Part shown: positions 5,566 through 8,603 of the stretch, piece after piece
How the letters are laid out: each line of letters opens with the position of its first letter
Position numbering within the stretch: position 1 is the stretch's first letter
From: a virus
UHGV virus genome: UHGV-0043381
Reading direction: 5' to 3' (one strand)
Length of the DNA: 12,991 bases
The notes under the pieces: generated by a model
Database searches by the model: none
The model's input: only the letters and a program-made list of their open reading frames with translations
What the model was told of the DNA's origin: nothing
Translations under genes and position numbers: made by a program

Positions 5566-6059
5566 TGCTGCCCCCACAAACAGACTTCACGCTCAATCTC
5601 ACGGCGAGTCATCAGCCCTTTCCATTGCTTACCGCCAGCATATGTCCAGCGACGTAGCTGATCACATGCGCCTTTGATATCGCCCTGGTTTATTTTGCGA
5701 AGAAGCGTCGATGTTCTGAAATTGCCAGCACCCACGTTGTAAACGAATGAGTAAAGAGCGCCGCGCATTGTTTCCGGTATATCGACTTTGATGTACGGGT
5801 TAATTTGTCTGGCGACCGTGGCAAGGTCTTTATTCAAGAGTGTTTTGCATTCTGCTTTGGTATACGTTTTACCGAGCATGATGTCTTTTCCTGTATGCCC
5901 GTGACATACAGTCCATACACCAACAATATCTTTGTATGGTATGTAGCTGACACCTTCCAGACCATCGTTACCACTTGGGCCAGTAATTAACACTGATGCT
6001 ATAGCAATTGCTCCGCCACCAATAGCAGCAGCAACGGCTTTTCGTAATGATGGAGGCAT
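5562..6059 (-). CDS. R: SAR endolysin (phage 21 R-type lysozyme with N-terminal signal-anchor-release domain), 165 aa
   Basis: [59 protein letters not shown]... matches my recollection of R21/RrrD. Gly/Ala-rich SAR segment; catalytic E35, D44, T50 present by count. ATG at 6059-6057 overlaps the holin stop (TAATG). Confidence 0.9.
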
Positions 6060-6274
6060 TATTCACCTCTCGCAGCCTTGCGCTTATCTTCTTTAATCTT
6101 GAAATAAAGGTTTGTCAGGTACGTCAGCAGGCCAAATACCAGGCTACCCAGCACTCCAATTGCCGCCCACTGTGAGGGCGTGACTTTATCGAGCAGCTGT
6201 AAAAACCAGTAACCGGCACTACCTGCTGAGGTGCCATAGGCGACACCCGTTGTTAACTTATCCATGGATTTCAT
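6059..6274 (-). CDS. S: Class II holin (S21-type pinholin) with dual-start motif MKSMDK, 71 aa
   Basis: [71 protein letters not shown] matches the S21/EssD family. Two in-frame ATGs at 6274 and 6265 (holin/antiholin dual start); SD-like gaggtgggg upstream. The ORF-track start at 6319 is a TTG extension that I reject. Confidence 0.88.
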
Positions 6275-6699
6275 AACCCCACCTCGCAGACAAAGCGGGT
6301 GTAAATTGAGGGAATACAACGTATCGCAAAAAAGCAGAAACGTAACAGACTCGGAGTCAGTGAATAACTCAGGTATTGAGTTATCAGCTAATATCGAGAC
6401 TCAAAAAATGGAAAAACCAGCTCGACGGCGGGTTTAAGCTGTGTGACGAAGTAACCACTCTTAACAGCATAACCAATTTTTTACGTACGTAAACCACTGA
6501 ATGATATTTATGAGAATGCTACCGAGTGTTCAAAACTCCACCACAAATACATAAGAAAACCTTAACAAATAACCAATAAATAATTTCCAGCGTTATTTTT
6601 AGCCAATTTAAATTGAACCTTCAAATTATAGAGCACTTATAAATAACAGCCATTAATATAAATTGGCTAATAGATTTATTTTTATTCAGCCAAGAGCCA

Positions 6700-6863
6700 T
6701 GAATAGGATTCGATAGAAAAAAGTTCAGATAAAAATAGAGATCTACTTCACAAATTAAACGAGAAACTAAAACTTACATCTTGAAATAATCACATTGATT
6801 AGATGAATATTTATCGCGCAGTGACATCATTTTTTAATAATAGTTCAAAAAAAAGGGCTCACG
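6700..6863 (+). promoter_or_regulatory. Putative nmpC promoter with OmpR-box-like repeats (ttacatcttgaaataatcacat), weak -10, SD aaggg
   Basis: Sequence at about 6770-6800 resembles the ompC C1 OmpR site TTTACATTTTGAAACATCTAT from memory. TTGAAA at 6781-6786; AT-rich 540-bp leader; a 12-bp perfect palindrome caatttaaattg at 6604-6615 lies further upstream. Confidence 0.35.
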
Positions 6864-7946
6864 ATGAAAAAATTAACAGTGGCAATTTCTGCTGTAGCTG
6901 CATCAGTACTGATGGCGATGTCTGCTCAGGCAGCTGAAATTTATAATAAAGACAGTAACAAGCTGGATCTGTACGGGAAAGTTAATGCTAAGCACTACTT
7001 CTCCTCTAATGATGCAGATGATGGTGATACTACTTATGCCCGTCTTGGCTTCAAAGGTGAAACCCAAATCAACGATCAACTGACTGGTTTCGGTCAGTGG
7101 GAATATGAATTCAAAGGCAACCGCGCTGAATCTCAAGGTTCCTCCAAAGACAAAACCCGTCTTGCATTTGCAGGCCTGAAATTCGGTGACTACGGCTCAA
7201 TCGATTACGGCCGTAACTACGGTGTAGCATACGACATCGGTGCGTGGACTGACGTTCTGCCAGAATTCGGTGGCGATACCTGGACCCAAACAGATGTATT
7301 CATGACTGGTCGCACCACAGGTGTTGCAACTTATCGTAACAACGACTTCTTTGGTCTGGTTGATGGCCTGAACTTTGCAGCTCAGTATCAGGGCAAAAAT
7401 GACCGAAATGAAGTAACTGAAGCTAATGGCGATGGTTTCGGTTTCTCAACTACTTATGAGTATGAAGGATTCGGCGTGGGTGCAACCTATGCTAAATCTG
7501 ATCGCACTAATAATCAGGTTATCTACGGTAACAACGGTCTGAATGCTTCTGGTCAAAATGCTGAAGTATGGGCAGCTGGTCTGAAATATGATGCGAACAA
7601 CATCTATCTGGCCACCACCTATTCTGAAACCCAGAACATGACTGTTTTTGGTAATAACCATATTGCCAACAAAGCACAAAACTTCGAAGCTGTTGCACAA
7701 TATCAGTTCGACTTCGGCCTGCGTCCATCCGTTGCTTACCTGCATTCTAAAGGAAAAGACTTGGGTGTTTGGGGTGATCAGGACCTGGTTGAATATGTTG
7801 ATGTAGGTGCAACCTATTACTTCAACAAAAATATGTCCACTTTTGTTGACTACAAAATCAACCTGATTGATAAGAGCGATTTCACGAAAGCATCTGGCGT
7901 TGCTACCGATGATATCGTTGCTGTAGGTATGGTTTACCAGTTCTAA
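6864..7946 (+). CDS. nmpC: Outer-membrane general porin of the OmpC/OmpF family (NmpC/OmpD-type), intact, 360 aa
   Basis: Signal peptide [23 protein letters not shown] followed by [24 protein letters not shown]... and C-terminal ...VGMVYQF (terminal Phe typical of OM beta-barrels); matches my recollection of the DLP12 NmpC family. Not IS-interrupted, unlike the K-12 copy. Confidence 0.92.
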
Positions 7947-7961
7947 TTTGATTACTAAAAG

Positions 7962-8043
7962 ATATGTTGTGGGAGGCTTTGCCTCCCCAACATATAAGTG
8001 GCTCCCTCAAGCCACTTCCTTTAGAAGCACAACCTTGCTTCTA
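7962..8043. other. Cluster of three consecutive stem-loops between the nmpC stop and the Q stop
   Basis: Read directly: 7962-7995, about 15-bp stem with one bulged t (atatgttgtgggaggc / gcctccccaacatat); 7996-8017, 8-bp perfect stem (aagtggct / agccactt); 8023-8042, 6-bp stem (agaagc / gcttct). Confidence 0.5.
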
Positions 8044-8082
8044 ACTATACAAACCTTCTGTTATATATTACCCTTTATTTTT

Positions 8083-8110
8083 GGGGGCGTTTCAACGCCC
8101 CATTTTTAAT
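8083..8110 (+). terminator. Intrinsic terminator for nmpC (GC stem gggggcg/cgcccc plus T-run)
   Basis: Stem 8083-8089 / 8096-8101 with loop tttcaa, followed by atttttaat on the plus strand. A T-run also precedes the stem, but the minus-strand 3' side is A-rich, so termination is mainly plus-strand. Confidence 0.55.
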
Positions 8111-8134
8111 AACTTTTAGTAAATAATTGGCGTA

Positions 8135-8518
8135 TTAATTAGAGTTATTAACAACGATATCCATCTCTAACCGGATATCTAATGCCATTAACATCCCTTC
8201 AATTATGCCCTCAGCCTTCTGTAACCTTTTCCCGATATAACCATCAGAGCAGCAATGCTTACCTGCCAGTGACATGAATGTCATACCGACTACATAATAA
8301 TCTACTAATAAATCGTGCAAATCGCTGTTGTTCTTTTTCAGACGGGCCATGCACCCGCAAATGATCATAGCGTCATCGTCACAACATTGCGGGCGAGATT
8401 TTACTTTTGAAGTAATTAATCCCTTAAAACCGGCGGCAATGGACGACCAGGTCACATCTTCATGATTATTAGCCGCCCACGCTCCCCAACGCTCAAGAAC
8501 CATCTGAATATCACGCAT
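8135..8518 (-). CDS. Q: Late-gene antiterminator Q (phage 21/82-type, DLP12 QuuD-like), 127 aa
   Basis: [62 protein letters not shown]... matches my recollection of QuuD, with Cys-rich zinc-binding region. ATG at 8518-8516 has GGAG 7 nt upstream; the ORF-track start at 8533 is a TTG extension that I reject. Confidence 0.85.
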
Positions 8519-8603
8519 CAACTTACTCCACAAAAATCAGACCAGAACGCCAATTACAAGCAAAAATCAATAAAACAGTATTAGTTGATTGTTATCTCTG
8601 ACT

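Follow-up and report, generated by a model that had tools for sequence, protein, structure and literature searches.

IpeX is a known prophage RNA. Reviews describe it as a 167-nt product of DLP12 or PA-2 that is made within the porin transcript and lowers host OmpC and OmpF, so that the phage porin replaces them. According to the same reviews, published genetics showed that ipeX acts in trans on both OmpC and OmpF. Reviews up to 2025 state that IpeX lacks complementarity to ompC and that its action does not involve base pairing, and its effect on ompC was reported to be Hfq-independent. For Escherichia coli K-12, the listed coordinates of ipeX are 574365-574531 (reverse strand, 167 nt; PMC8313858 supplement). 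A second described arrangement that bears on the present locus is the late control region (pR'-qut-tR') of lambdoid phages, in which the late promoter is located directly after the Q antiterminator gene in lambda, 21, 82, H-19B, and Sp5. In Sp5, the transcript from pR' to tR' was found to be 258 nt long by dRNA-seq and Term-seq (Sy et al., PMC7547250).

The window analysed here, the whole 12,991-nt stretch of DNA from virus genome UHGV-0043381, is a lambdoid prophage. Over 6300-8600 it shares 100% identity with E. coli HS30-1, and its identity with several sequenced Escherichia phages is ~93-99%. The order on the minus strand is nin-region genes, rusA, ylcG, Q, a 188-bp gap, nmpC (on the opposite strand), a 590-bp spacer, essD, rrrD, Rz, and terminase genes. 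The layout of K-12 DLP12 is the same, apart from an IS5 that interrupts nmpC in K-12; the porin gene of the window is intact. An earlier sequence-only reading had named the two convergent genes nmpC and Q, and both calls were correct, as indicated by matches to Pfam Porin_1 and Phage_antitermQ. The coordinates of the features are shown in Table 1.

Related DNA also occurs as remnants. In the yedK-fliE region of E. coli O18, a degenerate DLP12-like remnant retains nmpC, the whole IpeX region, and a 3' fragment of Q beside ybcM-ybcL-emrE, and in other strains only a ~65-bp 3' fragment of Q is left, which is annotated as IS200/IS605 tnpA. Elsewhere in the window, the only Rfam match is IS009 (225 bits) at 93-291 on the minus strand. 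It straddles the start of the portal gene and the gene of the head-tail joining protein (by offset to an annotated record), and this "RNA family" may be nothing other than coding sequence that is conserved in phages.

Table 1 Positions of genes, RNA elements, and putative control signals in the window.
Feature	Position	Strand	Description
nmpC-type porin gene	6864..7946	+	Pfam Porin_1, E = 3.6e-152; related records annotate ompC/OmpD
Q antiterminator gene quuD	8135..8518	-	Pfam Phage_antitermQ PF06530, E = 3.5e-53; distant match to Q21 structures
Holin gene essD (S)	6059..6274	-	Pfam Phage_holin_2_1; first late gene downstream of the pR' homologue
ipeX (~165-167 nt), probable	7944..8110	+	nmpC stop codon to end of terminator T-run
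Hairpin H1	7962-7995	+	8 + 7 bp, one bulged T, loop TTT (UUU in RNA)
Hairpin H2	7996-8017	+	8 perfect bp, loop CCCTCA (CCCUCA, 8004-8009)
Hairpin H3	8021-8044	+	9 perfect bp, 6-nt loop
Unpaired linker, predicted	8051-8080	+	between H3 and H4
Hairpin H4 stem	8084-8101	+	GGGGCGT/ACGCCCC
H4 and U-run, nmpC/ipeX intrinsic terminator	8084-8107	+ only	terminator scan: GGGGCGTTTCAACGCCCC then ATTTTTAATA
pR' homologue, predicted promoter	6459..6493	-	-35 TTTACG 6493-6488; -10 TATGCT 6471-6466; inferred start ~6459; aligned with H-19B and Sp5
Promoter-proximal terminator-like hairpin	6412..6432	-	CCCGC..GCTGG + UUUUU; from alignment

The hairpin cluster downstream of nmpC

The gap between nmpC and Q is filled by four stem-loops (H1-H4), all of which were found at or near the positions given for them in the sequence-only reading. 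The exception in size is the third stem, which had been described as 6 bp at 8023-8042 and consists of 9 perfect base pairs over a longer interval. Folding of the cluster is far beyond chance. The plus strand RNA of 7947-8112 has a predicted energy of -58.5 kcal/mol, compared with -29.4 ± 3.4 kcal/mol for 200 dinucleotide shuffles (z = -8.5, 0/200), and the minus strand is also over-stable (z = -9.1 versus shuffles). In the predicted fold, the linker between H3 and H4 is mostly unpaired (0.78) and the loop of H2 has an unpaired probability of 1.00.

H4 followed by TTTTT is a canonical intrinsic terminator, in agreement with the suggestion that the gap terminates nmpC on the plus strand. The T-runs flanking this GC stem are present as had been noted, and both are on the plus strand, so that H4 is a terminator of the plus strand only; on the minus strand, A's come after it. 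H1 is the only hairpin with U's after it on the minus strand, where CUUUUAG follows directly. Some transcripts from the Q strand could thus end at H1. A 53-codon ORF beginning with TTG at 7948-8109 was rejected as spurious; it crosses all four hairpins and its frame is lost in the other clades described below. In addition, 8103-8122 in the tail of the terminator and 8135-8154 in the last codons of Q form an AT-rich, imperfect inverted repeat of 20 nt with 80% complementarity.

The cluster is very probably ipeX, that is, the 3' untranslated region (UTR) of nmpC read on the plus strand and ending at H4, and not a late promoter region. The K-12 ipeX interval (NC_000913.3) begins at the nmpC stop codon and aligns with ~7944-8110 of the window at ~95% identity. 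Position, strand, and length also agree, with the nmpC stop at 7946, the plus strand terminator at 8084-8107, and a length of ~167 nt. Our covariance model (R1) scored 209.9 bits for the K-12 copy and 215.3 bits for the window copy. Since ipeX itself is already known, the hairpins noted from the letters alone represent a prophage RNA that had been described before. In HS30-1 the gap is 100% identical, and it was found in ~2,500 of 5,426 complete genomes, with an nmpC-type porin gene adjacent in every record examined. A REP-like or dispersed repeat was also considered and was rejected because the gap sequence is confined to the flanks of nmpC-type porin genes in all examined records. An Rfam search of 6300-8250 gave no family match, neither at the gathering threshold nor at E ≤ 1.

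The late promoter and the porin module

The sequence-only reading had placed pR', the Q-utilisation site (qut), and tR' in the gap, on the strand of Q. This placement was not supported. The Q of the window belongs to the H-19B/933W/Sp5 family (74-77% DNA and 77% protein identity), and in H-19B and Sp5 the end of Q and the late promoter overlap. In a search for distant DNA similarity, Stx phages (H-19B, 933W-type, and others) showed a second short match less than about 100 bp after Q, which corresponds to ~6412-6500 of the window and not to the gap. In blastn, the Sp5 pR' region matched 6494-6412 with E = 8e-12, and matches in the gap were at chance level (best E = 0.08). H-19B and Sakai Sp5 both have TTTACG, a 16-nt spacer, TATCAT, then gataagAGTGGTTAC...CCCGCcgatgcGCGGG and seven T's; window 6493-6412 has TTTACG, a 16-nt spacer, TATGCT, then gttaagAGTGGTTAC...CCCGCcgtcgaGCTGG and five T's. 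Judged by this alignment, the homologue of the late control region is located at 6493-6412, between nmpC and the holin gene and ~1.6 kb from the gap. Our reading of Sp5, from a start 7 nt after TATCAT to the T-run of the GCCAGCC...GGCTGGC terminator, gives 258 nt and matches the published length exactly; absolute Sp5 coordinates differ by a constant offset of 142 nt between PMC7547250 and NC_002695.2.

A standard promoter scan of the gap on the Q strand gave no sigma-70 promoter. A relaxed scan of the minus strand returned only a weak, possible promoter-like match, TTGAAA, a 19-nt spacer, and TAATAT at 8095-8065 (9/12), lying across H4, and two further matches of 8/12. H1 followed by CUUUUAG on the Q strand is without a promoter upstream of H1, and the U-run is missing in clades B and C. 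The primers of the DLP12 reporter fragment that was published as the lysis-cassette promoter region place it at 6753-7522 of our K-12 locus (L002), which is the nmpC-essD spacer, and the fragment gives independent experimental support for a promoter outside the gap.

The numbering of that published fragment (-121 to +650) implies a "+1" at ~6874 of L002, equivalent to ~6816 of the window. This position lies ~48 bp past the start codon of nmpC and is upstream of both the pR' homologue (by ~350 bp) and essD (by ~525 bp). Either a second promoter may serve the lysis cassette, or the fragment may have been numbered from a different (RpoE-dependent) start.

The region of the pR' homologue showed no excess folding stability in the window (z = 0.39 versus shuffles). 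In its promoter-proximal hairpin, base 6419 is T in the window and G in K-12 DLP12 (CCCGC..GCGGG), which breaks the middle pair of the stem and weakens the hairpin. With this single G-to-T change, late or lysis genes of the prophage might be expressed more leakily. A GC hairpin with seven T's is likewise present in Sp5 (775-797 of our locus L019) and at the equivalent position of H-19B, ~30-50 nt past the mapped pR' start. The published full-length Sp5 transcript is nevertheless 258 nt long, so that transcription in vivo seems to pass through this terminator-like hairpin.

The Q proteins of the window, Sp5, and ev087 are collinear up to residue 120 (RLEMD) and diverge completely beyond it. The break indicates that a porin module, from ~8158 to ~6500, was inserted between Q and its promoter; the module supplies only the last 7 codons and the stop of Q (8135-8158). 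The cargo after this junction is nmpC and IpeX in the window, pR' and stx in Sp5, and a convergent blc lipocalin gene in ev087. Codon 120/121 of Q (~8159 of the window, and the corresponding sites in Sp5 and ev087) looks like a recurrent recombination junction for morons. The corrected map would read Q, the porin-plus-IpeX module, pR', and then the lysis genes.

Relatives of IpeX and predicted pairing with ompC and ompF

In ~140 plasmids, a diverged porin gene has a 3' flank that is 68-71% identical to the gap. These relatives form two clades next to the one that includes the window (clade A). Clade B, represented by three loci, has a convergent helix-turn-helix gene downstream, not Q. Clade C, represented by five loci on P1-like/IncY and other replicons, has ssb or an unrelated same-strand gene downstream, also not Q. 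The replicon types are IncY, IncHI1B, IncF, IncI1, and IncK2/Z, and the hosts are E. coli, E. fergusonii, E. albertii, Salmonella, Klebsiella, and Citrobacter. Among these plasmid loci, IncHI1B replicons have phage-type lysozyme, ssb, or head-protein genes nearby. In one clade B locus (L005), the annotated start codon of the porin (1482) looks wrong, and an in-frame ATGAAAAAG at 1434 suits a porin signal peptide. A scan of species-representative genomes for the exact H2 motif hit E. coli only, plus one contig labelled Streptomyces, and showed no wider taxonomic spread. This 442-bp contig (NZ_VJYK02000722.1, labelled Streptomyces alkaliterrae) is probably an E. coli contaminant.

All 11 sequences taken from the three clades fold, each alone, into H1-H2-H3-linker-H4. 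MAFFT with RNAalifold on the same sequences recovered just 18 pairs and misaligned H1, H3, and H4, and a covariance-model alignment was used instead. In that alignment (model built from clade A, n = 11), which is fitted to the structure and in which three clades amount to few independent events, 97.2% of cells are paired, compared with 38-48% when the partners are slid, and 19 of 39 pairs are changed on both sides (0/500 shuffles equal). The compensatory changes include 8 of the 15 pairs of H1, across three clades, and 5 of the 9 pairs of H3, and in clades B and C, H4 is likewise kept through compensatory changes. G.U cells are more frequent than A.C cells (6 versus 2), which mildly favours an RNA of the plus strand. 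The unpaired elements are nearly unchanged: the H2 loop CCCUCA is invariant in all three clades, and the linker has the core AAC.UU..UGUUAU.U. Since the cluster is kept with other convergent neighbours and with compensatory changes in about half of its pairs, it belongs to the porin gene and not to Q.

For target prediction, RNAduplex on full-length RNAs gave meaningless whole-molecule duplexes; instead, the linker was paired with windows of the start regions, with shuffles and opening energies taken into account. IpeX AACCUUCUGUUAUAU (8052-8066) is complementary to ompC AUAUAACAGAGGGUU (-21 to -7, including the Shine-Dalgarno sequence) over 15 contiguous pairs with one G.U, and IpeX CCUUUAUUU (8072-8080) is complementary to ompC AAAUAAAGG (-31 to -23) over 9 bp. 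The duplex of the linker with ompC -31 to -7 has a predicted energy of -25.1 to -26.4 kcal/mol, and none of 1000 shuffles was as good. With the opening costs of the two RNAs included, the net value is -18.5 kcal/mol, compared with -15.2 kcal/mol for the validated MicC-ompC pair in the same calculation. With the 5' end of MicC the linker shares GUUAUAU and CCUUUAUU, the two halves of the MicC seed. In a scan of 50 kb of K-12 around ompC (both strands, ~20,000 windows), the ompC start region was the best site for the linker; the next best site had -20.3 kcal/mol, and the mean was -8.9 with an SD of 3.2.

Pairing with ompF is weaker and marginal for the clade of the window (-18.8 kcal/mol; 33/1000 shuffles as good). 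No pairing above chance was obtained with ompA (470/1000 shuffles), which agrees with the 2006 work of Castillo-Keller, Vuong and Misra, in which OmpA was reportedly unaffected by IpeX. For the linkers of clade B, the predicted energies with ompC are -25.9 to -28.7 kcal/mol (0/300 shuffles as good). The linkers of clade C reach -27 to -28 kcal/mol with the ompF start region (0/300 shuffles as good) and also pair with ompC around the start codon. Each element spares the start region of its own porin (-9 to -14 kcal/mol), the sequence of which differs (AAGGGC...AUGAAAAAA). The H2 loop is complementary to UGAGGG, which occurs in a hairpin loop of the ompC leader and in the Shine-Dalgarno region of ompF.

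These predictions suggest the following mechanism, which, taken together, we consider somewhat more probable than not. H1-H3 would stabilise the RNA and display the unpaired linker. The linker would pair with the ribosome-binding region of ompC, covering the Shine-Dalgarno sequence and overlapping the MicC site, so that translation would be blocked, and the overlapping stretch GUUAUAUAUUACCC would pair more weakly with the ompF start region. Speculatively, the invariant H2 loop would make the first loop contact with UGAGGG in the targets. On the minus strand, H1 followed by CUUUU may also stop part of the transcription leaving Q. The absence of the U-run in clades B and C led us to treat this stop as a secondary and unproven role; convergent transcripts could then overlap across IpeX.

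We give about an even chance to the wider reading that IpeX is a conventional antisense RNA acting on ompC, and more weakly on ompF, and the founder of a family absent from Rfam. Such a family would comprise four-hairpin 3' UTRs of porin genes in lambdoid prophages, conjugative plasmids, and P1-like phage-plasmids. Its members would carry an inverted host porin start, directed at ompC in two clades and at ompF in the third, and would spare their own porin. The literature consulted, which covers IpeX through later reviews, contains no description of the four-hairpin covariation, the plasmid and phage-plasmid relatives, or the complementarity to ompC and ompF.

Competing explanations and comparison with known systems

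Three other accounts of the cluster were weighed against a trans-acting antisense RNA. A minus strand carrying pR', a Q-loading site, and tR', sharing its DNA with the nmpC terminator, would fit the position of the late promoter in the lambdoid phages named above, the resemblance of H1 and CUUUU to a minus strand terminator, and the 9/12 promoter-like match. However, the promoter region of the same Q family resembles 6494-6412 and not the gap, the standard promoter scan of the gap returned nothing, the whole cluster is conserved beside porin genes that have no adjacent Q, the break after residue 120 marks an insertion between Q and its promoter, and the published lysis-promoter fragment leaves out the gap. 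On homology, a late promoter in the gap is largely refuted, and we regard it as extremely improbable. A pair of back-to-back terminators with no trans role, in which H4 stops nmpC, H1 stops transcription exiting Q, and H2 and H3 stabilise the RNA or insulate against convergent polymerases and 3' exonucleases, is also improbable, though less so. The canonical terminator at H4 and the CUUUU after H1 on the minus strand agree with it, and strong 3' hairpins generally protect mRNAs. Yet the U-run that H1 would need is found only in clade A, although the hairpins are kept in all three clades, and mere termination leaves the invariant H2 loop and the conserved antisense linker of the three clades unexplained. 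The published trans action of ipeX on OmpC and OmpF, including reported repression of ompC in trans by the 165-nt RNA in isolation, also contradicts an element that serves for termination only.

The current view in the literature, that IpeX acts in trans but indirectly and without pairing to ompC, for example by titration of a protein through its hairpins, is a more substantial competitor, and we consider it unlikely rather than improbable. It is consistent with the statements in reviews that complementarity is lacking and that the ompC effect does not need Hfq, and a protein-binding site could account for the sequence conservation seen in the stem and loop of H2. On the other side, the complementarity of 15 + 9 bp to the ribosome-binding region of ompC does exist and is predicted to be stronger than that of MicC. 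Moreover, in each of the three diverged clades the linker has remained antisense to the start region of a host porin, and the clade's own porin is spared. Direct pairing of the linker with the porin mRNAs, if true, would overturn the review statement that IpeX lacks target complementarity.

IpeX has been a porin regulator without a known mechanism for 20 years, and the complementarity to the starts of ompC and ompF makes its mechanism directly testable. As modelled here, a mobile element that comes with a porin of its own has, in the tail of that gene, an antisense RNA that could silence the porins of the host. Porin switching of this kind is relevant to the exclusion of phages by receptor and to antibiotic permeability. 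It is the antisense model and the wider family that deserve further work.

The element of the window matches IpeX of K-12 DLP12 and PA-2 in locus, strand, and length, is ~95% identical, and has no structural difference; we regard the two as the same element. The lambdoid pR'-qut-tR' region (21, 82, H-19B, 933W/Sp5; StxS RNA) has its homologue in this prophage upstream of the holin gene. The gap is without homology to that region and without a convincing promoter on the Q strand, and the promoter is parted from Q by a porin module of 1.65 kb. The nmpC module resembles other phage moron cassettes in having its own upstream region and terminator and a sharp junction after Q codon 120, and differs from them in the additional trans-acting RNA in its 3' UTR. 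Among porin-directed RNAs, the predicted IpeX site on ompC overlaps that of MicC, both seed halves are common to MicC and the IpeX linker, and this linker, like MicF, looks like a porin start region in inverted form. In contrast to MicC and MicF, IpeX is the 3' UTR of a porin mRNA and not an independent gene with its own promoter. It also differs from MicC in that the seed halves are split by AUUAC, the pairing reaches across the Shine-Dalgarno sequence, the reported effect on ompC is independent of Hfq, and there is no overall sequence homology. Since it starts at the nmpC stop codon and is made in the porin transcript, IpeX would work like MicC but is not a member of the MicC/MicF family.
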